A DNA stretch of 64,000 nucleotides from a virus, in IMG/VR virus record IMGVR_UViG_3300042503_000983, positions 1 to 64,000 of that record; one strand, given 5' to 3'. Numbering within the stretch: position 1 is the stretch's first letter; each line of letters begins with the position of its first letter. A program made the position numbers and the translations under genes. The notes beneath the pieces are model-generated. The model saw only the letters and a program-made list of their open reading frames with translations, searched no databases and was not told the origin of the DNA. Shown here piece after piece: positions 2,249 to 59,766 of the stretch.

Positions 2249-2620
2249 ATGGAATATATTGATGGATTACAAAAACTGCCAAACAAGCCAAAAGTAAAGG
2301 TCGTAGAGAACAATGCTGACTACGGACTGTATGTTTGGAAACTAGAAACTGGAAAAATATTTGGTGATGACGATGGAAATTTTATGAACATCCCAGCCAG
2401 AAAATATGACTTAACTGCAATTAACAGGCTTACACAGGCTGCAGCACATTATGGTGCTGGAGAAGGTAAGGCAGTTTTTATGCCAGGAGTTACAAGAATT
2501 ACAGACGAAGAGCATTCTGTACAGATTGATAGAATGAAACAGGGATATATTCCTAGTGAATTTGATACTGATGCTTTTGCAGATGCAGCAAAGGGGCTTA
2601 ATAAGCATGGAGATGACTGA
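2249..2620 (+). CDS. Hypothetical protein upstream of portal, probably leaderless
   Basis: TG-G-TACAAT at 2234-2242 lies 6 nt before the in-frame ATG 2249; the end overlaps the portal start. Confidence 0.7.
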   Translation: MEYIDGLQKLPNKPKVKVVENNADYGLYVWKLETGKIFGDDDGNFMNIPARKYDLTAINRLTQAAAHYGAGEGKAVFMPGVTRITDEEHSVQIDRMKQGYIPSEFDTDAFADAAKGLNKHGDD

Positions 2621-5635: not shown

Positions 5636-6631
5636 ATGACAGAAAACAATGAAATTTTAGAAAAGTCGGCTGCAGCAGGTTCTATCGTATCTGGTGGAAT
5701 TGGTGGTGTAGATACACCAGTAGCTGGAATTCTTGACAATACGAACCCAGTTGGTGATCTAGTGTCTGATGGCGGTATTTTGCAGCCTGAACAGTCACGT
5801 CAGTTTATTGAGTATATCTTTGAACAGCAGGTACTAGCACAAGATGGTCGTAGAGTTACTATGAGAGCTAATACAACCGAACTTGAAAAGATGAATGTTG
5901 GAGAGCGTGTAATCCGTGCAGCAGCCCAGGCTGATGCAACCTACACAAATGCTGATGTTCAATTTACTAAGGTACAACTTACCACTAAGAAGATTCGTCT
6001 TGATTGGGAAGTTTCGACTGAAGCTCTTGAAGATAATATCGAAGGTTCAGGTCTTGAGGATCACTTGGTCCGTACAATGACCCGTGCATTCGCAAACGAT
6101 CTTGAAGATCTAGCAATCAATGGTACAGGAACTGGTACAAACAACTTCCTTAACATCCTTGAAGGCTTCGTATCAATCGAATCTGATGGTAATTCAGCAA
6201 CATATGGTACAACTATCGAAGACTTGCAGGGTCTAATCCTTGCAATGCCTCGTAAGTACCGTGGTTCACGTTCGAACATGAAGTTCTATGCAGACACCGA
6301 AACCGTTGCTTCAATTATCAACGGTCTTGGATCTTCTGGTAACTTGAATTCCGAGCGTATTATTGAACGTGTTATTGATGGCTCTGCTCCGCAGACCCTT
6401 GGTGCACCAATTCAGTATCGTGTTCTAGGTCTTCCATTAGTTGAAGTTCCTTTGATGCCAGCTGGTTATGTATCACTTACATTCCCAGAAAACCGCATTT
6501 GGGGCTTCCAGAGAGACGTAACAGTACACCGTGAATTCAAGCCGAAGAAGGACACTGTAGAATATACAGTATTCCTACGCTTTGGTATTGCTATCGAAGA
6601 AACCGATGCAGTAGCATTCATGCAAGACTAA
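5636..6631 (+). CDS. Major capsid protein (HK97 fold)
   Basis: RBS GGAGGTG; motifs GGILQPEQSRQFI, EALEDNIEG, LAINGTG; position after protease; followed by a hairpin. Confidence 0.93.
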   Translation: MTENNEILEKSAAAGSIVSGGIGGVDTPVAGILDNTNPVGDLVSDGGILQPEQSRQFIEYIFEQQVLAQDGRRVTMRANTTELEKMNVGERVIRAAAQADATYTNADVQFTKVQLTTKKIRLDWEVSTEALEDNIEGSGLEDHLVRTMTRAFANDLEDLAINGTGTGTNNFLNILEGFVSIESDGNSATYGTTIEDLQGLILAMPRKYRGSRSNMKFYADTETVASIINGLGSSGNLNSERIIERVIDGSAPQTLGAPIQYRVLGLPLVEVPLMPAGYVSLTFPENRIWGFQRDVTVHREFKPKKDTVEYTVFLRFGIAIEETDAVAFMQD

Positions 6632-9614: not shown

Positions 9615-10295
9615 ATGGCTAATCGTGGAAATTCCAATCAAATTATCGTTGGTGCAGCACAGTTGTTCGTTTCAACACAAGGTCCTCTAGAATGGGACAG
9701 TGCTGAAGAATACTATGCATTTAACGGAAGTGCCTCAGCAGGTGTTCTTGACTTTGTTCCAGGACAGAAGTTTGCAGACACTCTTGAGTTGAATGACTCA
9801 GCAAGATGGAGAAACGTAGGCTACACCATGAACGGTCTGGAAGTACAATTCCAGCCAGATTTTGGTGAGGTACAGGTTGATCAGCTTCTTGACGTTGCTA
9901 AGCTTTACAAGCAAGGTATGCAGGTTAACATGGTAACAGCATTTGCTGAAGCTACTCTTGAAAACCTTGTTGTTGCAGTTGCAACTTCAGATGCTAACTA
10001 CAATGATGATGACGCAGACGAGCTAACTCTAAATCTATCTGCAGGTGATATCGGTGAGGTTCCTTTGGAACGTGCACTTATCGCTGTAGGTCCAGGTTCT
10101 GGTGATCCAAACGCAACTGGTGAAGATGCAGTAGAGCGTGTATACGTTGCTAACCGTGCTCTATCTATTGATAGCGTAACAGTTTCAGCAAAGCGTGATA
10201 CTCCTTCTATGTACGAAGTATCGTTCCGTTTGCTTCCAGCTGGTAATGGCTCATACGGCAAGATCGTTGATCGTGTTGTAGGAACTACAGTATAA
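9615..10295 (+). CDS. Major tail (tube) protein
   Basis: RBS GAGGTG; IIVGAAQLF, VGYTMNGL, VQVDQL motifs; position before chaperone and TMP. Confidence 0.88.
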   Translation: MANRGNSNQIIVGAAQLFVSTQGPLEWDSAEEYYAFNGSASAGVLDFVPGQKFADTLELNDSARWRNVGYTMNGLEVQFQPDFGEVQVDQLLDVAKLYKQGMQVNMVTAFAEATLENLVVAVATSDANYNDDDADELTLNLSAGDIGEVPLERALIAVGPGSGDPNATGEDAVERVYVANRALSIDSVTVSAKRDTPSMYEVSFRLLPAGNGSYGKIVDRVVGTTV

Positions 10296-10399: not shown

Positions 10400-10735
10400 A
10401 TGGCAACTAGCGTATATGAAGTTGTAGAAGTAGAACTATTAGATGGTTCTGCTATTTCTATGAAACCCCTAAAAATCTCTTTACTTAGAGATTTTATGAA
10501 AGAGTTTCAAAAAATTAGTGATCCAAAAATTGCAGAAGACAATGTAAAGTCTATGGATCTTTTATTAAACTGTGCTGTAATTGCTATGAAGCAATACAAC
10601 CCAGAACTGGCAACCAAAGAGCAGCTAGAAGAGCTCATTGACTTGCCAACAGTGTACAAGGTTATTGAAGTGGCTGCAGGAATTAAGCTGAATGACCCAA
10701 ACGCACTGGCAGCGGCTCTAGTTGGGACGAACTAG
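10400..10735 (+). CDS. Tail assembly chaperone (G-like)
   Basis: RBS GGAGG; lies between tail tube and TMP; contains a slippery heptamer. Confidence 0.85.
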   Translation: MATSVYEVVEVELLDGSAISMKPLKISLLRDFMKEFQKISDPKIAEDNVKSMDLLLNCAVIAMKQYNPELATKEQLEELIDLPTVYKVIEVAAGIKLNDPNALAAALVGTN

Positions 10736-11067
10736 ATCTTGCTGAGATAGAATCAAGAGTATTTCTTCTGGGATTCTGGAAGAACTATTCTGAACTGGAG
10801 GACTCTATATCAATGCCCGAACTGGTAGCAATACTAGAAGCTAAAAATAGTCAAGAATATGAAAGTAGAAAATTCATGGCAGCTTTACAGGGCGTTGATT
10901 TAGATAGTTCAGATACGTCTAAGAATAAATGGGAAGAGATAAAGGCTAGAGCTTTTAGCAAAGGTGCTACATCGAATCCTAGAGACATTCTTGCCCTTCA
11001 AGGCAAAGCTGCACAACGTGCTGGCTTTGGAATTGGAAATGGCTTGGATTATGAGGTGGTTAATTAA
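10696..11067 (+). CDS. Tail assembly chaperone -1 frameshift extension (GT-like)
   Basis: C-CCA-AAC at 10696-10702 is in correct phase; the -1 frame opens right after TGA 10693-10695 and runs to 11067. Confidence 0.8.
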   Translation, partial: PKRTGSGSSWDELDLAEIESRVFLLGFWKNYSELEDSISMPELVAILEAKNSQEYESRKFMAALQGVDLDSSDTSKNKWEEIKARAFSKGATSNPRDILALQGKAAQRAGFGIGNGLDYEVVN

Positions 11068-14000
11068 TGGCTGGAGTAGCTAAAGGCATTATTGATATCC
11101 AGATAAACACTGGGTCTGCTGCTGCTGAGCTAAAAAAGCTCCAACTACAAATTAACTCCTTTAATTCAGCCCTTTCCAAGGGAAATCTAGCCCAAGCTAA
11201 ATTTGCTACTGACTATACAAGAGATCTTTCAAAAGCAATAAATTCAACTGGAGTTTTTACTTCAGAGTTTGTAAAGTTAAACTCCGCTGCTGCAAATCTT
11301 GACAACACTTTAAAAAGAGGAAGAGGAACTTTAGGTCAATTTTTTAGTTCTGCATTTAATAGAAATAGTGCAGCGTTTGCAGAAACAATGTCTCTTGCAG
11401 CTAGAAGAGCTTCTACCTTGCAAACACAATTTATTTCAACTGGTGCTTCTGCACAAGGTATGGGTGAAGCTCTTGCAATTAGACCTCTAGATGCCTATGC
11501 CTCTAAAGCAGCAATTGCAGCAGAAAGACAAGCCCTTCTAAATACAATGTTTAGACAGGGAACAACCCACATGATTAACTTTGGTAAAAATGTTCAGTGG
11601 GCTGGTCGTCAGCTTATGGTTGGCTTTACCGTACCTTTAACTGTTTTAGGAACAGTCGCAGGTAAAACCTTTATGGATATTGAAAAAGAATTAGTTAATC
11701 TTAAAAAGGTTTATGGAGATGCTTTTACAACTCCAGAAGAAGTAAATCAAAATATTGCACAAGTTAGACAACTTGCTGAAGAATATACAAAATATGGAAT
11801 TGCAGTAAAAGATACTATTGGAATGGCTGCAAATGCAGCAGCTTCTGGTGCAAGAAATGCAGACTTAATAGATGCAACAAGACAAGCAACAAGACTAGCA
11901 ACTCTTGGTCAGATGGAGCAGCAAGAAGCTTTAAAGACTACAATAGCCCTGCAATCTGCTTTTAGACTTTCTGGAGAAGACCTTGCAGATACAATTAACT
12001 TTTTAAATATGGTTGAAAATCAAACAGTAGTTTCTTTGCAAGACTTGTCTGCAGCAATTCCAAGAGTTGCCCCAGTTATTAAAGGTCTTGGTGGAGATGT
12101 ACGAGACATGTCAGTATTCCTTGCAGCAATGCAAGAAGGTGGTGTTAGTGCAGAACAGGGTGCTAACGCACTAAAGTCTGGTCTTGCATCTTTAATTAAT
12201 CCAACAAAAGCAGCAACAGAAACTTTGGGAAGTTTTGGAATTAATCTAGATAAGATAATTTCTACAAATCGTGGAGATTTGATGGGAACAGTATTTGCTT
12301 TTGGTGAGGCACTTAAAGGCTTGGATGATTTTTCAAAGCAACAGGCATTAGAAAAAGTTTTTGGAAAGTATCAGTATGCAAGACTTGGAGCTTTGTTTGA
12401 AAATATTGTTAGAGATGGATCTCAAGCAAGTCAAGTTTTACAATTAATGGAGTATGATGTTGCAGCATTAAAAACTACAGCAGAAAAAGAACTTAGTGCT
12501 GTAGAAAATGCTTTAGGAACACAGCTTATTGGAGCAGTAGAAAGATTAAAGCTATCTCTTGAACCAATTGGAGAGATATTTGTTAAACTTGCTATTCCTT
12601 TTGTAAATTTTCTTACAACTATTGTTGAAAAATTTAATGGGCTATCTGATGGTCAAAAGAAATTTGCAGCAATAGCAGCAGTCCTTGTTGGTGTCGTAAT
12701 TCCTGCTGGAACAATGTTTCTTGGTCTTTTAATTAACTTGCTTGGAACACTTGGAAAAATTAGTCATGGAATTGCAATTTTCGTAAAGTCACTTATTAAG
12801 GGTGGTCCAATAGCAGCAATAAGAACACTTACGCAATCTACCAAATATTTATCAATTGAAGAACTAGAAGCAGCAACTGCTGCAAAGCAATTGTCATCTG
12901 CTACACATATTGCTAAAGCAGCAATGCTAGAACAGGCTACTTCTACAGATATTGCAAGAATAGCTGTGGCAAAGCTTACTGCAGAGTACAGAACTCTTAT
13001 ATCAGCACAGGCACAGGCAGCAGCATTTAATCCAGCATTTAAAACTGCAGGTATGGCAGGAGCTGCAGCAGGTGCAGGTAAAACTGGTTCTGTTACAGTT
13101 AGAGCCCTTAGAAGAAATGCTGGTGGACCAATATTTGTATCTGGAGAAACACAGGTTCCAGGAGTTGGAAATACTGACACCGTTCCAGCAATGCTTACTC
13201 CAGGAGAGTTTGTTGTAAACAAAGAGGCAACTGCAAAAAATTATGCACTTCTTGATGCAATCAATAGTGGAAATAAATTTAATAAGGGCGGAATGATTCC
13301 TGGATACAATCTTGGATCAATGGTTTTAAGAAATAGTCAAGCAAGAAATCAGGCTATTAAGGAAAGATATCTTAGAATGTTTGGACCTGAAGCTCAGGCT
13401 AAAGGGATAAGTCTTGAAGAAAGATTTGGAAATCTTTCACTGCTATCAAGACAAGATCGTATTAAAAACCAAAGAGCTTTAAAACCAAAAAATGTGACAG
13501 CAAGACGAACATCGCCCAACCAACAAAGAGCTCAACAAGATGTACAGGAAGGACCTATTCGAAATGTTCAAAGCGTTGGTAACGCACCACAGAGTGTTAT
13601 AGATGAACTAACGGCAGACTTGGTAGCACTAGGAGCTCCAGCTAATGTTATGGGTGAAAAGGCAAGACTTATCACTCCAACACCAAGATATAAAAGAGAG
13701 GGTCCAGCACTTGAGGGTGATACCAGCTATGGAAAAGAGTTTGACTTTAATAATAGTCTGAGGCGTGGAGTGAGCAACCCTAATCTTGGCGTTGCTAGAA
13801 AAGAAATGGAAGATCTTTTTGCACTAAATCCTCAACTTCATGGAACCTCAACTCCAGTCTCTCCATTTAAACACATATTAGATGAAGCTAACCTTGATCC
13901 TGCTCATTATTCAAGAATTGACTCAGCACTAAGATCTAAGGCTATAGAAATTGTTAAAAGGTCTCCAGAATCTCATAAATTTTCAGATCCTGAATACGGA

Positions 14001-17000
14001 AGAATTATTGTTGACTCATTAAGGGCAGCAAATCTTTCAACTATTCTTCAAGAAAGATTGTTGTCTACAGCAAGAATAATGAATACAGAAATTGGTTCAA
14101 GATCAATGAAAAGGTTTGAACCATACATTAAGGATTCTATTAGATTTAGTGATACTGGTGGCATACATCCAAAGTTTGAACCTGTTCCAAATGCTCCTAG
14201 AGGTGGTACATACATATATACTGCAAGTGATGGAACACGAGTTGAAATAAATGCAGGACAGTCACGACCTATACCTGGAAGATTATCGTATTCAAATCAA
14301 AGATATAATGCAGGTCGCACATATAACAATGCACATGCAGAAGTTCAAGATTTTAATGCTGGTGGAGCTGTTGGAGGTATGCAATATTTTGGCAGAATGA
14401 TGCCAAATCGTGTTGTTGCAAAAAACCAATTTGAAAAGTTCTCTGGAACAAAGATTGCAGAGTCAGAAGGACATAGTAGTAGGTTTAGAAGCCTAGCTGG
14501 AGTTTATGAGGTTAATGGCAGAAAAATGTTTGTTAAGCCATTTCAAACTCTTCAAGAAGCTCAGGCAGAATTAATTGGAAATGCGGCAAGAAGAGCAATT
14601 GCAGGAACTGCAACCCCTGGATCAAGAATTGTAAGAATGGACGGTCCTGAAGGAGAAATATTTGCAACAACTGCTCCAATGATTCCAGGAATGAAATCAG
14701 GATCAACTCTTTCTACTAAAGAACTTGTCAAGCAAATTCCTGCCTCATCAATGCTTGGAGATATGGATGCAACAGCTGGAAATATTATTTCAACTCGTGG
14801 AGGAAGACTTGCAACAATTGATCCTGGTGCTGCAGGTGTTAAGCTAATTAGAAATTCAAAAGGTGTATTTAGAAGAGCTACTGGATCTGAAATTAGTTTT
14901 GGAAATGAAGCAACAAATACTGGAGCATATACAGCAAAAGCAATTACACAGGTTATTGAAAAAACAGGGGCATCAAAAGACTTTGTTAAAATGCTTGGAG
15001 ATTCTATTGCTCGTGAAAAATTAACTAAAGCACAATTTACAAAAATGTATGATGATGCTGTTGAGTCAGCTATTGCAAGAGTGTCTTCCTTTAAACTACC
15101 TTCTAGAATTGGAGATAGATCAAAATTAGATGAGTTAGCAAGAGCATCTGGATATAAAAATGCAGATGAAGCATACTCTGCAATTATGCTTAGAGACCTT
15201 ACTTCAATTAGAGGTTTAAGTGGAGAGATATATACAAGTGCTTCAAGATTCCAAGGAGTGCTAAAGGCAAATAGTGGAACTCTTGTTCCAGGTGTAGGAA
15301 ATACTGATACAGTTCCTGCAATGCTAACTCCTGGAGAGTTTGTAATTAATAAAGATGCTACTGCAAAAAATCTTCCTTTGCTACAGGCAATTAATAACGG
15401 AGAAACAAGAAGGTATGGTCTTGGAGACTATGTTAACCCTCTTGGTTCATTGACAAATGCTCAAAGAATAAAAGGAATTAGACCTTCAGCATCATACCAG
15501 CAATCAAGATCCGCCACTGGATACAATGTCTTTAGTGGAATGGGTTCTGCTGAAAAAATTGCACCAGTCCAGGCAGCATTAAAAACAGGTCCAAAATATA
15601 TATTAGACGCATATAAAGAATCTGGAAAAGCAATTTCAGATGCAGCCAAACCAATGTTAACTTCTTTTAAAGATACAAGTAAGTCTGTTGCAAATGGAGC
15701 AAATAATTTAAAAAATTCTATTAAAGATTATGGAAAATGGAATGTTGTTCCAAGAATGCAAGATGCAAAACAGGCTGTGGCAAACACAAGGGCAGCTATG
15801 GGAACTCCTGAAGCAAAGGCTCTTAGAGCAGAAAGAATGCAAAAAGCTGGTCAAGGAATGATGATGGCTTCAATGATTCCAATGATGGCTTCAGGTTTTG
15901 TAGAAGATCCAAAGCAACAGCAAATGATGATGGCTGCTGGAGGTGCTATGGCTATTCTTCCAATGCTTCAACAGTTTGGTCCAATTTTAGGAGGACTAAC
16001 CCTAGCAGTAGGAGCTGCTGCTGCAGGATTCTTAATGTTTAAAAAGGATATGGATAATACTGCTAAATCAGCTGCAGAATTTGGGTCAAACCTTGGTGGG
16101 GCAGCAAATAGAATGGAAACAATTAGTGCTGCAACTGGTTATGGATTTGCGTCAACAAGATCTTCAGTACAAGACTTTAGATTTACAGAAGAGCAGTCAC
16201 AAGGTGCTGCTGAAATGATGCCTTTCTTTGATACTGATGAGGGTAAAAAGCTTGTAGAAGACTTAAAGGGTGCTTCTTCTGAAGAAAGGTATGAGAAAGT
16301 TGCATCAATGCTAACATTTGCAATAGCAGATGGAATGGATCCTAAAAAAGCAGAGTCTTTTGGATCTGCAATAGCTTTTGCATTAGACGATTCATTATTA
16401 AAATCAAAAACAGTAGCTCTTATTAGATCTGGAAGGCTTCAAAGTGGATCTCAAGCAATGATTAGTGAAATTTCTAAAAGACAGGCAGCTGCAGACTCTT
16501 CAACGGTTTCAGATTTTGAAAAAGCAAAAGCTGAAGAGGCAAAAAGAAATAATACTGCTGGAACTAGTTCCAATGTAAAGTATGGAGGAATTGGGTTAGC
16601 TGCAGGTTTAGGTGCAGGAGTTGCAATCGCTGCATCAACTGCAAAGCTAGCAGCAATGGGTGGTGCAATAGGATCAGTAGTTCCAGTTGTTGGAACTGCT
16701 GTTGGTGCTGTAGCTGGTGCTGTAGTTGGATTAGTGGCTGGTATAGCAGTTTACAATCTAGCAATAAAAAATCAACAAAAACAGGTTGCAGAGTCATCCA
16801 AATCATTTGGAGCAACTATTCAAACATTAAAAGAATTAAACAATGCCGAATCTTTATTAAATGAAGAAAGGTCTAAAGGATTAATAACAGATACTCAGTT
16901 CGAATCTTCTTTAAAACAAATTAATGAAATGAGACAAGTTGAGTATGAAAGAGTTAAGAAGGCTATAGACATTGGAGCAAGTGCAGATGCACAGGCACAA

Positions 17001-20000
17001 GGAATTAAAGACCAGTTAGTGCTTTCTGGATTTAAGGGAGATACTGCTCAGGCAGTTGCATCTAATGTAACAACTGATAGTATTTCAAATAAGCTGTTCC
17101 AAAAAGATATGGACAAGCTAGATCAAGCTCAAAAAGATGTAGTAACTGGAATTATGGCAAGCACTTTGGATGGAATAACTGAAGAAAATGCTGGAGCAAA
17201 AATTGGAGACATAACAGACATCTATGCAAAAATAGCAGATGAACTAGTTACAGCAGCAGCAGATGGCTTAACCTCAGAAGAAATTAGGGCTGAAGCAGAA
17301 AAGGAACAAATTAGAAAGTTTGCTGAATCTGCAGCATCTAATCTTGTGAACCTAACTCCTGAACAACAGGCTGCAAGAGCAAATACTATGGCAAGCAATG
17401 TTAGTGCTGCACTTCCTAATGTAAATAAGATGGGTGTCACTACTTCTCAACTAGTAAGTGGAATTTCAGGGGTAAGTGCAGAAGATCAAGCAAAGATAAC
17501 AGAGTCAACTGCTAATGTTGAAAAATTTGCACAGCTTTTAAATAGTCTTCCAGAAGGATATGACCTATCTCTAGCAATGGAATATTTCTCTGGAGATAAT
17601 AAAGAACAAGATGTAGATGCATTCTATAAAACACAAAAAGATGCTATTGATAAAATTGCAGAACTTATGCCAAAGGGAGCAGATGCTCAGGCAATCTATA
17701 CCGCACTCAAAGGACCTGGAAAAGATCCAGTTAAAGAGTTAGAGGCTGCAAATAAAAAAGCTCAAGAAATGTTTGATTCTCTAGGTGGAGATGAAGCTAA
17801 AGTAAAGAGCGTTGTATTTGAAAGTACTGGGTACGACATGACACAGGCAGAAGTAGATGCCTTTGGTGCACTTCCTGCAAGTGAGCAAAAATCATATTTA
17901 GCATCATTTACCATTGCAACTATGTCAGTTGGAAATGCACCAACTATTCCTCAGTCAGGAGCTCCTGCAGAAATGTCAGCCTACTACAAGAGACTAGAGG
18001 TTTGGAAAAAAGCTGTAGCAGATCAACAAAAAGCTATCCAGTCAGTAATTCCTCAGACAGTTGTTAATACTGATGACAACGGTAGTAGCTCTGGCGGAAC
18101 AAAGCCTCCTAGCAAAAAGGCTCAAGCAAAAACTTTCTTAAAAGATGCTACTACGAATAACAAAGTTCTTAAAAATTACACAAACCTAGTTAAAGGTGCT
18201 GCAACAGCTAACAATATAGAAGCCCTTAGCATGATTCCTCAAGATGTATACATGAATCTTTCTACTGAAAATAGAAAGAAATTGATTAAAGAAATGCAAA
18301 AGCAAATTGCGTATCAACAAAGATTAAATGCAGTAACAGTTTTAGCAGAAACTCAAAAAGCTACAGCAGATATGAAAAAATATTCAAAAGCACTTAACTC
18401 TTTGGGTGTTGTAATAACTTCAGATATCGAAGGAATGATTGACCAGAAAGCATTCCTTGCTATGACTACTGAAGAAAGAAAGGCATACATTGCAGAGCTG
18501 AATAAACAATCAGTAGCACAAGCTAAGCTAGCAGCAACTATGGCACTTGCAGATGCCAAAAAACAAACTAGCGATATGCAAAAATATTCTGCTGCACTAG
18601 GTGGACTAGGTGTTGCAATAAGCTCAGACATTGAAGGAATGATTGATCAAAAAGCATTCCTTGCTATGAACACTGCTCAAAGAAAAGCATATATTGCAGA
18701 GCTAAATAAGCAGACTTTGGCACAGGCTAAGCTAGCAGCTGCAATGGAAATTACAGACATGCAACAACAAACTCAAGAAATGCAAAATTACTTTAATGCA
18801 ATTTCTCCAATCGCTGCTGCTGCTGGGGCAGAAGTTTTGGGAATGATAGATACAGAAAAGTATCTTGCAATGACTACTACACAAAGGGAGGAATATGTAA
18901 AACAGCTAACTTCTCAGCTAAATGTTCAAAGAGCACTTGATTATTTAACACAGACTTCTCAAGAAAGAACAATGGATGCAATAGATGCAGAATCTTCAGC
19001 AATAAATATTAAGAATTCTGCATTACAAAACTCCCTTTCTGGAATGGAAAGAGAAAATGAGTTAATACAACGTCAAATAAGTTTAAGAAACCATGCTCTT
19101 GATTTGTTAGCAAAAGAAGAAGAAAAGATTAATACAACTTATGATGATAGAGTAAAGGCTCTTGATAAGGTTGCTAATGCAAATGATAGAATTGCTCAAA
19201 AAGATCGTTCAAGATTAGACCTAGCTTCAGCACTTGCATCTGGAGATATTTCTGCTGCAGCAGGTGCAGCAAGTGCAATGCAACAAGAAGAGGCACAGTT
19301 TAGAATTGAGGACGCAAGGGCAGCACTTGAAGCAAAAAGACAAAAAGAACTTGAATCGTTAACAGTTTCTGTAAATGGTGTAATGATGACAAGAAAGCAA
19401 ATTACAGAACAAATATCTCAGTTTGGTGAGACTATTTACAAAAATGAACAAGACATGATTTTAATTCAAGACCAACTTTATGCTAACTCTCTTGCACAAA
19501 AAGTACTAGATGATCAAAGAATGAAGTTAGAACAGCAAGTTTTGTTAATAAAAATGAGACAAAATATTGAAGCCTTAAGAGCACAGGGGTTAACTGGTCA
19601 AGCTTTAATAGATTTTCAAAATTATATTGATGCCTATAATACCCTTCAGGCAGCAGCTGCAGCAGCTGACATTGGAAATCCTGGAGCTGCTGCAAATACA
19701 ACATTGGGTGCTGGTGGCGGAGGAGGAGCTGCTGCAGTAATTGCTGCTCCAACTCCTGTAGCTGCTGTAACTCCAGTAACTCCACCACCACCGCCTCCTC
19801 CACCACCGCCTCCTCCACCACCTCCACCGCCACCACCTCCACCGCCACCACCGCCACCACCACCTGTTTATAGCTATTATACAAAAGCTCAATTCAATGC
19901 TGGAATAAAAGACTCAAAAGTTTCTTATGGAAATGGAAGTGAGCAGCATTACATAGCCAGAAAGTTGGGCTATTCGAATCCAACTGCTAGAACAGTAAAA

Positions 20001-20474
20001 GCAGACGAGATGGACAATGTTTATTGGGCTCTTTCAGAAGCAAGAAGGCAAGAGATTACAGAGTTAGTAAAAGAAGCAAGAGCCTCTACATCAAAAGCAT
20101 TTTCTGGATATAACAGTGGAGGTCTTGTTGCAGGACCTGGAAATACTGACAGTATATCTGCAATGCTCACCCCTGGAGAATTTGTAGTAAGAAGATCTAT
20201 GGTGGATAAATATGGAATGTCACTGCTTGAAGCAATAAATATGGGTGCTTTTAAAATGCCAAACATGCAGGAGCCTAAGTTTAGCTTTAGTGATTCTGGA
20301 AGATATGATACTGGAATTAGTGATGCAAGAGTTACTGAAACAATGTATAATAATGTATATAACTTAAATGTTAATGTTGCTGGAACAGATGCCTCACCAG
20401 ACGATATTGCAAATGTAGTTATGGCAAAGCTTTCACAGCAAAATAGAGGAAATTTAAGGAGCAATAGATACTAA
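11067..20474 (+). CDS. Tape measure protein, 3135 aa, with internal cargo domains
   Basis: N-terminal TP901-like TMP region, hydrophobic segments, coiled coils, three TD(T/S)xxAMLTPGEFV motifs. Confidence 0.95.
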   Translation: MAGVAKGIIDIQINTGSAAAELKKLQLQINSFNSALSKGNLAQAKFATDYTRDLSKAINSTGVFTSEFVKLNSAAANLDNTLKRGRGTLGQFFSSAFNRNSAAFAETMSLAARRASTLQTQFISTGASAQGMGEALAIRPLDAYASKAAIAAERQALLNTMFRQGTTHMINFGKNVQWAGRQLMVGFTVPLTVLGTVAGKTFMDIEKELVNLKKVYGDAFTTPEEVNQNIAQVRQLAEEYTKYGIAVKDTIGMAANAAASGARNADLIDATRQATRLATLGQMEQQEALKTTIALQSAFRLSGEDLADTINFLNMVENQTVVSLQDLSAAIPRVAPVIKGLGGDVRDMSVFLAAMQEGGVSAEQGANALKSGLASLINPTKAATETLGSFGINLDKIISTNRGDLMGTVFAFGEALKGLDDFSKQQALEKVFGKYQYARLGALFENIVRDGSQASQVLQLMEYDVAALKTTAEKELSAVENALGTQLIGAVERLKLSLEPIGEIFVKLAIPFVNFLTTIVEKFNGLSDGQKKFAAIAAVLVGVVIPAGTMFLGLLINLLGTLGKISHGIAIFVKSLIKGGPIAAIRTLTQSTKYLSIEELEAATAAKQLSSATHIAKAAMLEQATSTDIARIAVAKLTAEYRTLISAQAQAAAFNPAFKTAGMAGAAAGAGKTGSVTVRALRRNAGGPIFVSGETQVPGVGNTDTVPAMLTPGEFVVNKEATAKNYALLDAINSGNKFNKGGMIPGYNLGSMVLRNSQARNQAIKERYLRMFGPEAQAKGISLEERFGNLSLLSRQDRIKNQRALKPKNVTARRTSPNQQRAQQDVQEGPIRNVQSVGNAPQSVIDELTADLVALGAPANVMGEKARLITPTPRYKREGPALEGDTSYGKEFDFNNSLRRGVSNPNLGVARKEMEDLFALNPQLHGTSTPVSPFKHILDEANLDPAHYSRIDSALRSKAIEIVKRSPESHKFSDPEYGRIIVDSLRAANLSTILQERLLSTARIMNTEIGSRSMKRFEPYIKDSIRFSDTGGIHPKFEPVPNAPRGGTYIYTASDGTRVEINAGQSRPIPGRLSYSNQRYNAGRTYNNAHAEVQDFNAGGAVGGMQYFGRMMPNRVVAKNQFEKFSGTKIAESEGHSSRFRSLAGVYEVNGRKMFVKPFQTLQEAQAELIGNAARRAIAGTATPGSRIVRMDGPEGEIFATTAPMIPGMKSGSTLSTKELVKQIPASSMLGDMDATAGNIISTRGGRLATIDPGAAGVKLIRNSKGVFRRATGSEISFGNEATNTGAYTAKAITQVIEKTGASKDFVKMLGDSIAREKLTKAQFTKMYDDAVESAIARVSSFKLPSRIGDRSKLDELARASGYKNADEAYSAIMLRDLTSIRGLSGEIYTSASRFQGVLKANSGTLVPGVGNTDTVPAMLTPGEFVINKDATAKNLPLLQAINNGETRRYGLGDYVNPLGSLTNAQRIKGIRPSASYQQSRSATGYNVFSGMGSAEKIAPVQAALKTGPKYILDAYKESGKAISDAAKPMLTSFKDTSKSVANGANNLKNSIKDYGKWNVVPRMQDAKQAVANTRAAMGTPEAKALRAERMQKAGQGMMMASMIPMMASGFVEDPKQQQMMMAAGGAMAILPMLQQFGPILGGLTLAVGAAAAGFLMFKKDMDNTAKSAAEFGSNLGGAANRMETISAATGYGFASTRSSVQDFRFTEEQSQGAAEMMPFFDTDEGKKLVEDLKGASSEERYEKVASMLTFAIADGMDPKKAESFGSAIAFALDDSLLKSKTVALIRSGRLQSGSQAMISEISKRQAAADSSTVSDFEKAKAEEAKRNNTAGTSSNVKYGGIGLAAGLGAGVAIAASTAKLAAMGGAIGSVVPVVGTAVGAVAGAVVGLVAGIAVYNLAIKNQQKQVAESSKSFGATIQTLKELNNAESLLNEERSKGLITDTQFESSLKQINEMRQVEYERVKKAIDIGASADAQAQGIKDQLVLSGFKGDTAQAVASNVTTDSISNKLFQKDMDKLDQAQKDVVTGIMASTLDGITEENAGAKIGDITDIYAKIADELVTAAADGLTSEEIRAEAEKEQIRKFAESAASNLVNLTPEQQAARANTMASNVSAALPNVNKMGVTTSQLVSGISGVSAEDQAKITESTANVEKFAQLLNSLPEGYDLSLAMEYFSGDNKEQDVDAFYKTQKDAIDKIAELMPKGADAQAIYTALKGPGKDPVKELEAANKKAQEMFDSLGGDEAKVKSVVFESTGYDMTQAEVDAFGALPASEQKSYLASFTIATMSVGNAPTIPQSGAPAEMSAYYKRLEVWKKAVADQQKAIQSVIPQTVVNTDDNGSSSGGTKPPSKKAQAKTFLKDATTNNKVLKNYTNLVKGAATANNIEALSMIPQDVYMNLSTENRKKLIKEMQKQIAYQQRLNAVTVLAETQKATADMKKYSKALNSLGVVITSDIEGMIDQKAFLAMTTEERKAYIAELNKQSVAQAKLAATMALADAKKQTSDMQKYSAALGGLGVAISSDIEGMIDQKAFLAMNTAQRKAYIAELNKQTLAQAKLAAAMEITDMQQQTQEMQNYFNAISPIAAAAGAEVLGMIDTEKYLAMTTTQREEYVKQLTSQLNVQRALDYLTQTSQERTMDAIDAESSAINIKNSALQNSLSGMERENELIQRQISLRNHALDLLAKEEEKINTTYDDRVKALDKVANANDRIAQKDRSRLDLASALASGDISAAAGAASAMQQEEAQFRIEDARAALEAKRQKELESLTVSVNGVMMTRKQITEQISQFGETIYKNEQDMILIQDQLYANSLAQKVLDDQRMKLEQQVLLIKMRQNIEALRAQGLTGQALIDFQNYIDAYNTLQAAAAAADIGNPGAAANTTLGAGGGGGAAAVIAAPTPVAAVTPVTPPPPPPPPPPPPPPPPPPPPPPPPPPPPVYSYYTKAQFNAGIKDSKVSYGNGSEQHYIARKLGYSNPTARTVKADEMDNVYWALSEARRQEITELVKEARASTSKAFSGYNSGGLVAGPGNTDSISAMLTPGEFVVRRSMVDKYGMSLLEAINMGAFKMPNMQEPKFSFSDSGRYDTGISDARVTETMYNNVYNLNVNVAGTDASPDDIANVVMAKLSQQNRGNLRSNRY
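19782..19865 (+). repeat. Poly-proline run (28 Pro) in TMP
   Basis: Uninterrupted CCA/CCG/CCT codons. Confidence 0.95.
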
Positions 20475-21112
20475 TGGTTAGTAGTGCATATTTAAATTCT
20501 AGAAAAAAGTGGGAAAGACCACAAGCAATTATTTTTTCAAATAACTCTGGAGGAATTTTAAATGGTGTTCCACAAATTTCTGGAGTTGAAGGACAAGACT
20601 TCTTAATACTTTCTGACCATAATAGAAGTGACATTTCTTTTAATGCTAATAGAATTGAAAGTAAAAAAAGAATGGTAAATGGTCATATGCGTTCTTATCA
20701 TATTGCAGATAAGATGGAGATATCTTTTTCTTATGACATGCTTCCTTCAAGATCTTACAGCAAAGATCCAGAGTTTGATGAAAATGGAATTCAAACATCA
20801 GACTCTTTGGTTCCAGATACTCCAAAAAATCCAAGACTATTTCCAGCAGAGCACACCTTGATAGAATATACAGCAGATGGCGGTGCTGGAGGATCAGAGC
20901 TATTAGAATGGTACAAAACAAATCCAGGATCATTTTATGCATTTTTATCTTACGACAAGCCTCAAAGTTTTACTGTTGGAAAATATACTAGTTTAAATAA
21001 GTATTCAGAAGTGTTAGAAGTATTTTTCTCAGACTTTAGTTACAACGTTGTCAAAAGAGGTGGGTCTAATCACGATCTATGGGACATATCTATTTCTATT
21101 GAGGAGGTATAA
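20474..21112 (+). CDS. Putative distal tail protein
   Basis: Immediately after TMP; RMVNG.MR and C-terminal WDISISIEEV pattern. Confidence 0.6.
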   Translation: MVSSAYLNSRKKWERPQAIIFSNNSGGILNGVPQISGVEGQDFLILSDHNRSDISFNANRIESKKRMVNGHMRSYHIADKMEISFSYDMLPSRSYSKDPEFDENGIQTSDSLVPDTPKNPRLFPAEHTLIEYTADGGAGGSELLEWYKTNPGSFYAFLSYDKPQSFTVGKYTSLNKYSEVLEVFFSDFSYNVVKRGGSNHDLWDISISIEEV

Positions 21113-24100
21113 TGTTTTCAGATAATGATTTAATTAACCATCTTAAAACAAAGAATAGTGTATCCATAGATTCCTTGGTTATTGCAGAGTGGAATCAAAA
21201 TGATTTTACTAACCTTGAAAACTATGGTAACTATAGGTTTAGACCAGATGGATCAGATGTAGTATATAGAAATATTTATCCAGAATATGATCCACAAGAT
21301 GTTGTAAATTCTTATACCAATGCCTTGGATTCAAACTACATTTCTGAATATAAAACAGAAGACCCAGATGAGCCAGTTACTTTTATTACAAAAGAAAGTG
21401 ATAGAGAATCTTACTACTCTTTAAAGGATTGCATTAAGCCTTTTAGACCTAGATCTGGAATCAACAAGATGTTGTATTTTGGAGAGTCTAATATTAATAA
21501 TACCAAGTTTGTTGACAGCTTTAGATCTGGAAGAAGACCAAGGTATTATTTTTCTTCAAGGTTTGACAACTTTAAATACTGGAACTCTTATAGAAAAGAA
21601 TCTGGTCAAGAGTTTGGAATATCTAGTCAGGTTGCTACATTTTTTACCACTGATAATCCTTCTTACAAAATAAAAGACTGTGCCCCATTTGTTACTTACA
21701 AAAACAAGGTAGCTACAAATAGAATAGTCGTAAAGATGCAAACTAATCTAGCTGATCCAGCAGCAGTTGGTGTTAATGGAGACTCTCTAGTTCCTGAAGA
21801 AATTAGAAGAAACAATTCTTTAATAGCAGATCCAATGAAAGATATATCAAAATCTTCTGTTCCAAAAAAATGGAAAATACAATACCTTGATGAAAACAAT
21901 AACTGGGCTGACGCAATACAGTTTGATGAAACGTCTACTAGAAGAGATGGGTCAAGAATTGTTCCTTGGGATGGATATGTAGAAGTATATTATGGAATAA
22001 AAATTCCAGAAAGATTTAGAACAAACTTTAACCTATATAGCTATTTAGATTCTTTTGATCAATTACCAGACACTAGTTTGTACAATTTTTCTAACAATAC
22101 AAGAGATGGAGATGCATATATAGTTGGAGCCTCATCAACTAATGCAGGAACTCTTTATGTTTGGAGCCAGGAAGATGAAGAGTGGGCAGACTATGATGTA
22201 GAATATGGATTTTCACTATTAGAAGATGACGATACAAAAAGGCTTGGACTAGTTAAAAAAATATTAAATCCAGAATACTTTAACATTGAAGGTACTGACA
22301 TCTATAGAGAATTTGCCTTTGTTAAGGGAATTAGGCTAGTTGTTGAAACTATGTATGCTCCAAATAAAACTTTTGATTTAATTGAAATATCTCCAAGACT
22401 AAAGGTTAACATAACTGATTATGTTTTAGATTATGAAATTACTAAAAACATTATGGCAACAGACTATGGTCTTCCCGTTGGAGGTCTTGTTGCTTCAACT
22501 GGAAACGTATCCTTGTCAAACCATGACGGATCTTTTACAGAGTTAAATGTTTTTGACGAAGAGGATAAAACTGGGAGCATTATTGCAAACAATCTTAAGC
22601 CACAAATTAAATTTGACTTTTATGAAGCAGTTCTTAATGTTAATGGATATGATAAATTTATTCCACTAAAAACATTTTACTCAGAAAATGCAGCTATTGC
22701 AACCAGTGGCATGGAAGATATATCTTTAGACTTAAGAGATGCATATTTTATTCTAGAATCAAATAAAGCTGCACCAATATTTTTACAAAATTGTACCCTA
22801 ACCATGGCAGCAGCACTTCTTCTTGATAACATAGGTTTTAGTAACTATGTCTTTAAAAATATAACCTCTGTAAACGATCCTGTAATACCTTTTTTCTTTG
22901 TTGAACCAGACACTTCAGTTTCAGAAATTTTACAAAGACTAGCACAGTCTACTCAAACTGCAATGTTTTTTGACGAGTACAATAACTTTGTTATCATGCC
23001 AAAAGAATATTTGATGCCAGACATCTCTATTAGAGATAATAATTTAGCAATATCAGAAAGACTCACAAACTTATATGGTCAAAAAACTGATAACTTTGTT
23101 CCAAATATTGAGGCTATTGCAGGATTTGAAACAAACATTTTAAACGATGGTCAAATTAACTACACTACTAGATATATTCAAAGAGAAGTTTCAAGACTAG
23201 AGCAAGCAAGTCTTAGCCTAAGTGAAAGAACCTATGGATATAAGAGCTCTATCCTTTGGGAGCTTGGAGATCAAAAAGAATTAAGAACTATAAATCAGCC
23301 AACCGCTAATACAGGGTATGCACTTGGAGCTGTAACTTTAAATACAAGCTTACCAGACTTTGCTCCGTATGTAAGAAATCATCAAATTGTAAACAACACA
23401 ATTGATGTTGGAGAAAGTGCGTTTTGGCTACCAAGGTTTCAAGGATACTTGTATGCAAATGGAGAAATTATAAGATATGATGCTCAACAGTATCACGTTG
23501 ATGCCCCGTCTGCTTCTGCTACAAATGGTCTTGTTTGGATAACAAGTAATAATGAGTATCAAAAGTATTTTTCAAACTTGGTATTTAATGGAAAAATGAC
23601 TCTTACAGGGCTGCTTAGAATCTATACAGAACCTTACTACGAGAATGCTTCTGGATCAAATTTTGAGAACCTTGAAGAAAATGTTAGATATAAAAACGGA
23701 GATGTTAGGTCTCATGGTAGAGGTCAGTTTGGTACTGGAATAGTAAATCACTTTGCAGGACTAAATCCTTACTGGGAAGATCCAGACAATAGAAGGTCTT
23801 TTAGAATGGACTCAGGAAATATTTATAGCACTATTCCTGCAAAATTTTTTCCCAACTTGGAACTTGAAGTGCCAATTACAACTATAATACCTTATGAATT
23901 TTATACAGACAGTGAGTTTGTTCAAGGTATTTTAAATCCTAGACTATCCTATGGAAGAGGAAGTGAGCAGCACTATATTGCCAAAGCAATGGGATACACT
24001 GATCCATTAGCATACAGCGTAAGGGCTGCAGAAATGGTAGGGGTATATAGAAATTTAAGCCCTTATAGAAAAAATGTAATTACTGGAATGATAATAAGGG

Positions 24101-25968
24101 CTAATTCTAGTACACAAAATGTTTTTGGATACATGTCAGGATTTAATATGACTCAAATTTCTGATGAGCCACCAAGGTACAACTACGCCATGCCACTTGG
24201 AGATGATCCAATTTCTAAAAGCCAATCCCTAGTTCATGGAAAAATTGCAAACTTTATGAAACAATCAACAAGAACAGAAGGATTTTCTAGCTATAGTCAG
24301 CAAGACACTGCTGGAATTCAGTCCTCAGCTTTAGTTTTTTCAGGACCATATCCAGTACCATCTTTAGCAAACCCAGTATTTAACAGAACAGAACTATCTG
24401 CTACTACTGAAACAGATTTAGTAAACTATGTTTATAAAAGTTTAGATACAGATTATACTCATGTTGGAACTAGAATGAGAATTATTGGAAAACAAAAAGA
24501 TGACGATACTCAGTCTGCTTTAAATTCTATAAAACTATTTGATATTGATCAAAATAGTTCCACAGGAGGATTAAATGTAAAAGAGCTTTCTGGTGGAGCT
24601 GGAGGAATTGGATACATGCTAGATCCAATAACAAACTCTGGATACTACCTTGAAATTGCATCCCTTTCTTCAGATGTTTTAAAAGAGTTTACTAATAGTG
24701 GCTCAGTATCTTCTGGCTCAGTATCTTCTGGCTCAGTATCTTCTGGCTCAGTATCATATGAACCAGTTATTGAAAACATAATTTTTTATAAAGTTGAAAA
24801 TAGACCATACCTTAGACAGAAAACTGGAAAAACAAATATTGCAGTTCCTAAAAAGCTTTGGGGGTCTCTTGCAAGAATTCTTGTAGATGAAGGAAAGTTT
24901 ATAGGATCTGACAGGGCAACTTCTCAAGAAATTCCAGTGTACGATCTATCTTTGGATGTACAAATTTCTAGAAATGGATCAAGAATATCAAGAATAGATT
25001 TTTCCATATACTTAAACAATGTATTAATTGGAATAGTAAGTGACGAAACTCCATTACAAATGCCAGTTGATGGATTAAAAACTGGACTATTTACTAGAGG
25101 TTCAAGCAGATGTATGTTTGAAAATATTTATGCCCTAAAGAATATAAAAGAAAACGACACCCCTTTGCTTGAAAAAATTGAAGGAGCATTTTCTGCAGAA
25201 TCTCTGAGAAAGTATTCCCTTCCAGCAGCAATTCAAAGAACATACATGTCTTCCATTGGAACAGAGACAAGACCAACTGTAGATTTTTATTTTGAAGAGT
25301 TTGGCACAATTTTAAGAGAATGTGCATATTTTAATATTAAGTATGACCAAGCTTATCCAGCATTAATTGCAAAAATAGTTCCCCCATTTACTGTTGAAAA
25401 ATCATATGAAATTTCTGGATTTTTGCCAGGATCATATGGAGCAGAGTTTTTATTATTCAATACAACAGACAAGGCAATAGACTTGAGTGAAAATTCTACC
25501 AATAGAATTATGATTCAAGGAATAACTTTTACTCAAAATATATCAAATGTCCTTACTGTAGACGATTACTTTAAGGAACTATCGAACTTCTCTGATCCAG
25601 TTATTACAGAAAATAATTTAATAATTTCTCCAGAAAGGTCAGAAAAAATTTATGATAACATTAAGAACAGTAGGGCTATTTATGGAAACAAATCATTTTC
25701 TTTAGATTCTGTTTATATTCAAAATGAAGACTCTGCAAAAGATGTTATGAAGTGGATTCTAGATAAAACTATTAAACCAAGAAAGGTTTTTGAAATAGAT
25801 ACTTTTGGAACTTCTCATATACAACTTGGAGATATCGTTAAGATAGATTTTGACTTACCAGAAGGAGTTAAGCTAGTGGATGAGAACAAGAAGTTTGTAG
25901 TAATATCTGCTACATACAACAGATCTTCTTCGGATGTTCAAAGTCAATTAAGGTTGATGGAGGTTTAA
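21112..25968 (+). CDS. Large tail-tip/baseplate hub protein, 1618 aa
   Basis: Synteny; hub-like segments AMFFDEYNNF and IQLGDIV. Confidence 0.75.
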   Translation: MFSDNDLINHLKTKNSVSIDSLVIAEWNQNDFTNLENYGNYRFRPDGSDVVYRNIYPEYDPQDVVNSYTNALDSNYISEYKTEDPDEPVTFITKESDRESYYSLKDCIKPFRPRSGINKMLYFGESNINNTKFVDSFRSGRRPRYYFSSRFDNFKYWNSYRKESGQEFGISSQVATFFTTDNPSYKIKDCAPFVTYKNKVATNRIVVKMQTNLADPAAVGVNGDSLVPEEIRRNNSLIADPMKDISKSSVPKKWKIQYLDENNNWADAIQFDETSTRRDGSRIVPWDGYVEVYYGIKIPERFRTNFNLYSYLDSFDQLPDTSLYNFSNNTRDGDAYIVGASSTNAGTLYVWSQEDEEWADYDVEYGFSLLEDDDTKRLGLVKKILNPEYFNIEGTDIYREFAFVKGIRLVVETMYAPNKTFDLIEISPRLKVNITDYVLDYEITKNIMATDYGLPVGGLVASTGNVSLSNHDGSFTELNVFDEEDKTGSIIANNLKPQIKFDFYEAVLNVNGYDKFIPLKTFYSENAAIATSGMEDISLDLRDAYFILESNKAAPIFLQNCTLTMAAALLLDNIGFSNYVFKNITSVNDPVIPFFFVEPDTSVSEILQRLAQSTQTAMFFDEYNNFVIMPKEYLMPDISIRDNNLAISERLTNLYGQKTDNFVPNIEAIAGFETNILNDGQINYTTRYIQREVSRLEQASLSLSERTYGYKSSILWELGDQKELRTINQPTANTGYALGAVTLNTSLPDFAPYVRNHQIVNNTIDVGESAFWLPRFQGYLYANGEIIRYDAQQYHVDAPSASATNGLVWITSNNEYQKYFSNLVFNGKMTLTGLLRIYTEPYYENASGSNFENLEENVRYKNGDVRSHGRGQFGTGIVNHFAGLNPYWEDPDNRRSFRMDSGNIYSTIPAKFFPNLELEVPITTIIPYEFYTDSEFVQGILNPRLSYGRGSEQHYIAKAMGYTDPLAYSVRAAEMVGVYRNLSPYRKNVITGMIIRANSSTQNVFGYMSGFNMTQISDEPPRYNYAMPLGDDPISKSQSLVHGKIANFMKQSTRTEGFSSYSQQDTAGIQSSALVFSGPYPVPSLANPVFNRTELSATTETDLVNYVYKSLDTDYTHVGTRMRIIGKQKDDDTQSALNSIKLFDIDQNSSTGGLNVKELSGGAGGIGYMLDPITNSGYYLEIASLSSDVLKEFTNSGSVSSGSVSSGSVSSGSVSYEPVIENIIFYKVENRPYLRQKTGKTNIAVPKKLWGSLARILVDEGKFIGSDRATSQEIPVYDLSLDVQISRNGSRISRIDFSIYLNNVLIGIVSDETPLQMPVDGLKTGLFTRGSSRCMFENIYALKNIKENDTPLLEKIEGAFSAESLRKYSLPAAIQRTYMSSIGTETRPTVDFYFEEFGTILRECAYFNIKYDQAYPALIAKIVPPFTVEKSYEISGFLPGSYGAEFLLFNTTDKAIDLSENSTNRIMIQGITFTQNISNVLTVDDYFKELSNFSDPVITENNLIISPERSEKIYDNIKNSRAIYGNKSFSLDSVYIQNEDSAKDVMKWILDKTIKPRKVFEIDTFGTSHIQLGDIVKIDFDLPEGVKLVDENKKFVVISATYNRSSSDVQSQLRLMEV
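24699..24755 (+). repeat. Perfect 15-bp tandem repeat x3.8 encoding (SGSVS)n
   Basis: TGGCTCAGTATCTTC repeated without mismatch. Confidence 0.95.
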
Positions 25969-59600: not shown

Positions 59601-59604
59601 CAGC

Positions 59605-59661: not shown

Positions 59662-59664
59662 TTC

Positions 59665-59737: not shown

Positions 59738-59766
59738 CTCAAAAATAGATATATAATAGAATTACT

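Follow-up and report, generated by a model that had tools for sequence, protein, structure and literature searches.

The tape measure protein (TMP) encoded in a 64,000-nucleotide (nt) stretch of viral DNA (positions 1 to 64,000 of the IMG/VR record IMGVR_UViG_3300042503_000983; this whole stretch is referred to as the window) contains, between amino acids (aa) 1110 and 1400, a module that may be a very divergent, active atypical kinase carried as TMP cargo. Judged from sequence comparisons, this reading as a whole has a probability of about 0.5. Its parts are not equally firm: homology of the module to kinases appears very probable, its catalytic activity is probable to a lesser degree, and the role of a delivered effector, argued by analogy, is put forward tentatively. 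The initial annotation had placed a HipA/PI3K-PI4K-like kinase fold inside the TMP. Translation of 14430-15251 reproduced all the kinase-type strings that it quoted, each at its position, and confirmed that they lie in frame within a 3135-aa open reading frame (ORF) that matches PF10145 and TMP families of the PHROGs collection. No other ORF of at least 80 aa overlaps 14430-15250 on either strand.

Residues and Conservation of the Kinase-Like Module

The ORF, the module and its catalytic-type residues are positioned as follows.

11067-20474, + strand: TMP ORF, 3135 aa, a single open frame
14394-15266, + strand: kinase-like module, aa 1110-1400 (family alignments, hhalign, omega)
14469-14828, + strand: conserved core of the module, aa 1135-1254
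14535-14537, + strand: Lys1157, beta3-type, in VFVKP within GVYEVNGRKMFVKP; 70/70 sequences; aligned with the Lys of the LepB_N and HipA_2 consensus
14568-14570, + strand: Glu1168, helix-C-type, in AxAE (here AQAEL); 70/70; aligned with a Glu in LepB_N and HipA_2
14760-14783, + strand: catalytic-loop-type motif D1232-M-D1234-A-T-A-G-N1239 within LGDMDATAGNII; D, D and N each 70/70
14820-14828, + strand: D1252-P-G1254, DFG-type metal-binding motif in LATIDPG; D and G 70/70; aligned with IDfGAA of LepB_N

The Lys, the Glu, the Asp...Asn pair and the DxG Asp are conserved and stand in the order and spacing of protein-kinase-like enzymes. The codons of Asp1232, Asp1234 and Asn1239 begin at nt 14760, 14766 and 14781, with four residues between Asp1234 and Asn1239, and the loop aligns with gD~dvHsgN of LepB_N and with GDRHxxN of one PI3_PI4 kinase. 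The distance from Asn1239 to Asp1252 is 13 residues, the same as in the aligned PI3_PI4 sequence and as in classical protein kinases. The motif string by itself is just moderately unlikely: when the 291-aa module was shuffled 20,000 times, the strict pattern K..E..DxDx4N..DxG arose in 4 cases and the loose one, which does without DxD, in 279; among the 83 ORFs of at least 100 aa in the window, the strict pattern occurs once. What raises the motif set above chance is the invariance of K, E, D, D, N, D and G in 70 of 70 divergent family sequences. The positions that never vary across these 70 distinct sequences are G1135, G1145, K1157, E1168, P1184, P1194, Q1223, D1232, D1234, N1239, D1252 and G1254, and family members outside the subfamily of the window copy are only 21-28% identical to it. 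Purifying selection on the kinase-like core matches that on the core of the TMP: the ratio of nonsynonymous to synonymous substitution rates (dN/dS) among four 86-87% identical relatives is 0.16-0.17 for aa 1140-1290 and 0.16-0.20 for the TMP N-terminal core.

A kinase fold without catalysis, kept as a nucleotide-binding, structural or scaffolding module of the TMP, would agree with the lack of the +2 His that marks the catalytic loops of HipA, PI3K and LepB_N, and the initial annotation itself had raised a pseudokinase as an option. However, the Lys, the Glu, both Asp, the Asn and the DxG Asp stay unchanged in each of the 70 sequences, which share about 25% identity, and this invariance of all five catalytic-type residues counts against a pseudokinase. 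Pseudokinases as a rule lose some catalytic residues. Moreover, some family members have a Lys at the +2 position and read D-L-K-x-G-N or D-V-K-T-G-N, the loop form of Ser/Thr protein kinases, and the module is not a required structural part, because it is dispensable in 55 of 59 related TMPs. We regard a non-catalytic module as quite improbable. ATP-dependent phosphotransferase activity would be the most likely function since the full catalytic set (Lys1157, Glu1168, Asp1232/Asp1234, Asn1239 and Asp1252-x-Gly) is kept.

Profile Comparisons with Kinase Families

The module family was compared with kinase families in hhalign, using family alignments (1-43 sequences) that were cut mechanically from six-frame translations of natural genes. 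A3 denotes the 36-sequence alignment of the module family; one misframed row (L145) was excluded from the HipA_2 set.

A3 versus LepB_N (20 sequences, extended upstream): Prob 76.6%, P=2.1e-5, 108 columns
A3 versus LepB_N (same set, separate run): Prob 70.5%, P=3.9e-5
A3 versus HipA_2 (15 sequences): Prob 49.7%, P=1.7e-4, N-lobe
A3 versus Pkinase: P=0.09, catalytic loop to DFG
A3 versus HipA_C (43 sequences): P=0.24
A3 versus APH: P=0.48
A3 versus one PI3_PI4 sequence: P=0.56
A3 versus CotH: P=0.82

The alignment with LepB_N extends from the Gly-loop and Lys segment G-x-Y...F-V-K-P via the Glu to S-x-L-x-G-D-x-D-x-x-x-G-N. It was retained when the window's subfamily was left out (P=6.8e-5), and this subfamily alone (3 sequences) matched LepB_N with P=1.2e-4 over 143 columns comprising the catalytic loop, I-D-x-G-A-A and a helical C-part. 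Among the controls, reversed alignments gave P values of 0.38-0.87, the TMP N-terminal core against LepB_N gave 0.22, and, of 30 shuffles of the HipA_2 columns, 28 gave P of at least 0.056; in the other two, 5-9 columns at the ends scored about 130, an impossible value that we take as a software artefact of gap-rich ends. The set-up is insensitive, as the accepted pair HipA_2/HipA_C reached P=1.9e-4 and APH/Pkinase P=5.4e-3 under the same settings. The same neighbours emerged by other routes: a BLASTP comparison of the window module with one ORF of the LepB_N family gave 33.1 bits (pairwise E=9e-6), and when A3 was run with hmmsearch on all 134 kinase sequences collected, the two LepB_N sequences ranked first and second (E of 0.025 and 0.057). 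The nearest named ESM Atlas neighbours of the window module, to be taken as leads only, were HipA_2, LepB_N and PI3_PI4_kinase clusters (0.91-0.92); a second family member, about 25% identical, had the same named neighbours, with HipA_2 the most frequent (18/30).

The kinase attribution of the initial annotation was therefore upheld in part: LepB_N (Prob 76.6%) and HipA_2 (49.7%) speak for it, whereas classical HipA_C gave nothing and no curated threshold was reached. Its alignment of the loop with DxHxxN, with Thr in place of His, was recovered against the GDRHxxN...IDFG segment of PI3_PI4, but only at P=0.05. Its further idea, an injected enzyme active ahead of phage gene expression, stays a conjecture. 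The family is best regarded as a new branch of the protein-kinase-like superfamily, very divergent and close to the LepB_N/HipA_2/PI3-PI4-kinase group.

Several results weigh against the reading of the module as an active, carried kinase. Pfam found nothing in the window piece, PF18640 (LepB_N) included, at E<=1; among 10 members, PF18640 had no match at E<=10 and HipA_2 a single sub-threshold one (1/10, E=0.15). The best NCBIfam match reached just E=0.12 (RisK1, a Rickettsia PI3-kinase effector, on the catalytic loop), PHROGs matched 0 of 36 members and PADLOC 0 of 5, and neither phmmer nor profile searches of PDB sequences found a kinase. The hhalign probabilities of 50-77% are suggestive and short of proof, and Pkinase (P=0.09), HipA_C (0.24), APH (0.48) and CotH (0.82) stayed far behind. 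The loop His that is present in the LepB_N alignment, in one PI3_PI4 sequence and in the E. coli HipA loop is replaced at the equivalent position by Thr in the window and by S, K, G, R or Q in relatives. Finally, three folded 290-aa domains are, by our own estimate, too large for the lumen of a siphophage tail tube, so that unfolded storage must be assumed.

The lack of any significant match in curated libraries or PDB sequences, together with a best hhalign probability below 80%, is what would be expected if the module were a conserved TMP domain of some other fold, in which the order of the motifs arose by chance. This is hard to reconcile with two kinase families matching the right elements in the right order, with controls that fail to match, with two concordant Atlas queries and with a strict motif found in just 4 of 20,000 shuffles; a fold with no relation to kinases is thus given a low probability, similar to that of a non-catalytic one.

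Occurrence of the Module in Related Tape Measure Proteins

With aa 1085-1400 as the query, an exhaustive HMMER search across 1.84 billion representatives returned 12 proteins at E<=0.001, two of which (P0010 and P0012) are repeat noise. Eight proteins were found when the region was searched in proteins of 1724-5487 aa; six of them carry PF10145 and four are named by their source as TP901-family TMPs. An IMG/VR scan with five distant members (alignment A2) matched 356 stretches, and 244 of these encode a relative. The set of loci analysed further (n=84) consists of 80 of the 244 IMG/VR loci and four close relatives. The module shares its ORF with the TMP N-terminal core at 83 of the 84 loci, and at the remaining one a frame change separates it from the upstream ORF bearing the core, so it is TMP-embedded in 84/84 cases. 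The module identity is correlated with the identity of the N-terminal core (r=0.69). The position of the module in the main family is variable, with a gap of about 100 to about 800 aa behind the N-terminal core, and in 154 of 805 pairs with modules at least 60% identical the two positions differ by more than 150 aa.

A free-standing module gene had no match (0) in a word-based search of proteins of 138-510 aa, and the four matches in proteins of 511-2000 aa were all fragments or TMPs. There was no tblastn match for the module in 50,697 deposited phage records, and two peptide patterns applied to 185,579 species genomes gave 0 of 55 candidates. In the ESM Atlas, the three feature neighbours ranked highest for 14394-15266 (0.96) are clusters without a name: two contain bacterial proteins of 304 and 321 aa, most often from the phylum Spirochaetota, and one contains viral proteins of 220 aa. 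These may represent relatives encoded on their own, or fragments, overlooked by the word-based search. An ADP-ribosyltransferase-like R-S-E pattern noticed by eye in the homologue P0019 was dropped, with nothing found by Pfam at E<=1.

The Linker-Bracketed Slot and Its Contents

The kinase-like module occupies the second part of a 710-aa segment that follows module A and is bracketed by two copies of a linker motif (…PGxGNTD[TS][VI][PS]AMLTPGEFV…; GNTDTVPAMLTPGEFV). This motif occurs in the TMP three times, at aa 704, 1414 and 3028.

13140-13271, + strand: first linker copy (PGVGNTDTVPAMLTPGEFV...), which bounds the cassette on the left; belongs to direct repeats D3 (75 nt) and D4 (124 nt)
13299-14393, + strand: module A, aa 745-1109, first half of the cassette; no Pfam match at E<=1
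15270-15401, + strand: second linker copy, which bounds the cassette on the right; D3 and D4
20112-20186, + strand: linker repeat copy 3, near the TMP C-terminus; D3, 77%

At the DNA level, copies 1 and 2 form a 124-nt direct repeat (13148-13271 and 15278-15401), 77% identical and spaced by exactly 2130 nt. A 75-nt core is common to all three copies, and the repeats overall are 77-79% identical. Unrelated deposited phages match the region at the DNA level only in 55-75 nt of the linker (77-89% identity); four records do so, one of them a Synechococcus phage. The linker motif may be a recombination handle or a processing site.

A survey of the 80 nearest relatives by N-terminal core (56-95% identical) provided 59 TMP ORFs with a complete 3' end, of 2022-3455 aa. 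Only four of these 59, the relatives above 93%, contain the kinase-like module; the 55 that lack it have N-terminal cores 56-73% identical to the one in the window. The relatives without the module share aa 1 to about 750 and the linker, which is followed by non-homologous fillers of about 350-1000 aa up to the next linker. Of 81 TMPs scanned, 78 had a detected linker, and 55 of these carry three copies. Single linkage sorted the slot contents into 10 clusters, which is a rough count owing to chaining through shared sub-segments, and four alternative fillers of related TMPs had no PDB sequence match. Module A accompanies the kinase-like module in just 1 of 84 TMPs, and the segment 5' of the module (aa 740-1100) is merely 31-33% identical, i.e., replaced, in 3 of 4 close relatives. 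The kinase-like module is an accessory cassette in a cargo slot, outside the tail-length ruler, because it is always TMP-embedded (84/84 loci) yet absent from 55 of 59 related TMPs.

Other domains were encountered in the same group of proteins. A HAD subfamily IIIB acid-phosphatase domain (PF03767) was found in P0009 (aa 1030-1154, 39.9 bits) and P0011 (aa 436-562, 28.7 bits), and in 10 of the 84 ORFs a HAD-like module follows the kinase-like one. In some TMPs the two stand side by side, with the HAD phosphatase just downstream. Two kinase-module TMPs carry further domains near the C-terminus, namely an M23 peptidase in P0019 (aa 2540-2626) and an OmpA peptidoglycan-binding domain in L054:2155-12738 (aa 2714-2807). 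P0006 has a borderline cytidylyltransferase-like domain (21.1 bits versus a cut-off of 21).

The same architecture could be interpreted differently, with the TMP as a mere expression vehicle for an active kinase that works late in the producing cell or is cut off at the linkers during tail maturation. TMP processing is common, as illustrated in passages of PMC10038345 by the conversion of T5 pb2 to pb2* and pb2C. The motif that brackets the cassette is the same as the one that ends the TMP and could mark processing sites, and the folded domain is, again by our estimate, too big for the tube lumen. On the other hand, a late cytoplasmic enzyme would have no need of fusion to the TMP, and all 84 copies are fused in frame inside TMPs, with no free gene among proteins of 138-510 aa. 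Action in the producing cell seems improbable to us, if slightly less so than the loss of catalysis.

Proposed Role and Significance

In the reading that we prefer, the kinase-like module and the 365-aa module A make up an optional cassette in the slot between two linker copies; in related phages, this slot holds other, unrelated sequence. Infection drives the TMP out of the tail and into the host envelope, and the cassette would therefore be carried along as cargo. It would travel unfolded in the tail lumen, exit with the TMP and refold after ejection, while the flanking hydrophobic segments (aa 531-562, 1638-1658 and 1861-1901) would be seated in the inner membrane. On the ATP side of this membrane the cassette may phosphorylate a host protein or a membrane lipid before or as the DNA enters, and this phosphorylation would precede phage gene expression.

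A variant of this proposal takes the substrate to be a membrane lipid or an envelope precursor, with the kinase helping the TMP to build an inner-membrane channel or to hold it open. The profile-nearest family, LepB_N, is a phosphoinositide 4-kinase according to PMC7025538 and PMC9758233; in addition, there is the weak match to the RisK1 PI3K on the catalytic loop (E=0.12), and the module is located between hydrophobic segments of the TMP. Its N-lobe, however, is HipA_2-like, and the classical relatives of HipA_2 are described as Ser/Thr protein kinases in sections of PMC8262856; the protein-kinase-type Lys in the loop of some members also speaks for a protein substrate rather than a lipid one. 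We hold the lipid variant to be rather unlikely, although it is the strongest of the alternatives considered here.

A broader proposition is that, across a large clade of uncultured siphophages, the TMP serves as a modular injection vehicle, in which a slot bracketed by repeated, DNA-conserved linkers holds swappable enzymes that would pass unfolded through the tail and refold in the host before phage expression. The linkers would be recombination handles and perhaps processing sites, and the cargo would include the kinase family, HAD phosphatases and others. This generalization is speculative and we rate it as doubtful, below the delivered-effector role itself. If it were true, the kinase cassette would be the first ATP-dependent effector known in a TMP. 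The slot-and-linker architecture could be used for cargo swaps when phages of laboratory strains are engineered.

The family represents a kinase-like group that no curated library recognises. Known TMP enzymes work on the cell wall. If true, a conserved ATP-dependent kinase in a TMP would imply that some portion of this protein gets to the cytoplasmic side and acts on the host before phage transcription, and it would extend the idea of "polyvalent injected proteins" to the central protein of the tail. The full-text literature searched contained no description of a kinase domain in a tape measure protein; the alignments of Iyer et al., which were outside this search, may bear on the question.

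Genomic Context in the Window

The source IMG/VR record has 72,942 bases and a completeness estimate of 68%. The left part of the window is a siphophage-type structural module, with the TMP ORF downstream of portal, protease, capsid and Ig-type tail genes.

2556-4163: portal
4214-5611: head protease
5636-6631: major capsid protein (PHROG matches; 39.6% identity to Streptomyces phage capsid genes)
9615-10295: Ig-domain tail protein
10400-10735 and 10813-11067: two small ORFs
11769-12365, + strand: PF10145 PhageMin_Tail core, TMP aa 235-433 (E=1.3e-27; 97.4 bits versus a cut-off of 33.2)
12657-12752, + strand: hydrophobic transmembrane (TM)-like segment 1, aa 531-562 (Kyte-Doolittle 19-aa window mean up to 2.41)
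15978-16040, + strand: TM-like segment 2, aa 1638-1658 (hydropathy)
16647-16769, + strand: TM-like segment 3, aa 1861-1901 (hydropathy; weak membrane-type DUF1269 and Pam17 matches)

The identity of the TMP is indicated by the PF10145 match above the gathering score, the length of the ORF and the fitting gene order. Ten of the 12 PHROGs families matched by the ORF are TMP families (best phrog_10030, E=5.4e-96), and these matches are confined to the first ~690 aa. Within the TMP's helical body, 18405-18812 is a 204-nt tandem duplication (75% identical) that forms part of a three-fold protein repeat of about 68 aa (…MIDQKAFLAM…RKAYIAELNKQ…), and at 19767-19873, near the C-terminus, a CCn-rich 15-nt periodic repeat encodes an unbroken run of about 34 prolines. 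The 1618-aa ORF 3' of the TMP has a minor-tail PHROG match. Large ORFs without a Pfam match at E<=0.001 lie at 192-2222, 21112-25968, 41250-43034, 45455-46660 and 55399-56961. Three tRNA genes (Asn-GTT, Arg-TCT and Met-CAT) are located at 59528-59738 (+) and 62960-63036 (-), and the GC skew changes sign in the final 2 kb of the window.

Comparison with Known Systems

By the criteria of the families themselves, the TMP module family is no member of LepB_N, HipA, HipA_2 or PI3_PI4. The closest by profile-profile comparison is LepB_N (PF18640), which has in common with the TMP module G-x-Y...F-[IV]-K-x-P, a Glu about 11 residues further on, a helix, G-D-x-D-x-x-x-G-N and I-D-x-G-A-A; both are also parts of multi-domain proteins carried by a delivery machine. 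As for differences, the module has no match to the PF18640 model and its hinge region is much shorter than that of LepB_N. The catalytic-loop His (gD-x-d-V-H-s-G-N), invariant in the 20-sequence LepB_N alignment, falls on a variable position of the TMP family, and the second Asp, invariant in the TMP family, is a Ser in LepB itself. The host setting is different too, the host of the TMP module being a bacterium, and phosphoinositides are not general lipids in bacteria. The primary paper on the LepB kinase is reportedly that of Dong et al. (2016). A LepB_N family member matched residues 9-322 of PDB entry 4JW1 (LepB) with E=3.8e-58, and therefore a solved structure exists for comparison. LepB, a Legionella effector with LepB_N as its N-terminal domain, is described as a PtdIns(3)P 4-kinase and an atypical kinase-like protein in PMC7025538, PMC9758233 and bioRxiv 10.1101/2022.06.17.496549.

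HipA_2 (PF20613), the minimal HipA-like kinases of ~240 aa, resembles the TMP module in size (~260 aa) and in the N-lobe, with G-x-S/T-x-P, the beta3 Lys, the Glu and GLP-x-P. In contrast, its catalytic loop (N-x-D-R...N-x-N / IDH) is unlike that of the module, which stays below the model cut-off of 27 bits, and the phage record has no HipA_2 match either. The module also differs in being embedded in a virion protein, away from any toxin-antitoxin setting: it lies inside the TMP ORF, has tail genes for neighbours and is not adjacent to an antitoxin gene, whereas an adjacent antitoxin gene is required for Hip kinases by Gerdes et al. 2021 (PMC8262856). E. coli HipA gave an hhalign Prob of 0.07 and the HipA_C alignment (43 sequences) P=0.24, values that do not place the module in HipA. 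The T7 kinase gp0.7 showed no detectable similarity to the TMP module (hhalign Prob 0.2). Both HipA and gp0.7 are kinases used in phage-host conflict, as the module would be, and excerpts of PMC5512222 and PMC8262856 state that they act on translation factors. As for PI3_PI4_kinase (PF00454), MLGDMDATAGNIISTRGGRLATIDPG of the window was aligned without gaps to a bacterial member (38% over 26 columns, P=0.05) with the same Asn-to-Asp spacing of 13; the Arg-His of GDRHxxN is Ala-Thr in the window and there is no Pfam match, which leaves the module outside this family as well.

Enzymes fused to TMPs have precedents in the C-terminal peptidoglycan hydrolase of T5 pb2 and in the M23 and OmpA domains of relatives. 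These have their site of action at the cell wall, outside the cytoplasm, and do not need ATP, in contrast to a kinase, which needs ATP and therefore access to the cytoplasm. According to passages of PMC10038345, the T5 TMP is metastable in the tube until receptor binding brings about its expulsion; the enzyme at its C-terminus is set free, possibly after refolding.

A similar idea applies to the kinases of phage-injected polyvalent proteins. In PMC5512222 (Iyer et al. 2017), these are trimmed kinase domains within huge multi-domain proteins that are believed to enter the host with the DNA, and modification of host proteins, with the T7 kinase as precedent, is suggested as their role. They reside in MuF-type proteins of (pro)phages of Verrucomicrobia, Chlamydia and Bacteroidetes, whereas the module described here sits in a tape measure protein, a term absent from that text. 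They are also closer to Ser/Thr/Tyr kinases and have a His...Asp insert; the TMP module family may conceivably be identical with them. Their marks, as given there, are the loss of the C-terminal subdomain, a Glu before strand 2 and a conserved Gln in the final N-lobe strand. The latter may be compared, by description only, with the invariant Q1223 of the TMP family.

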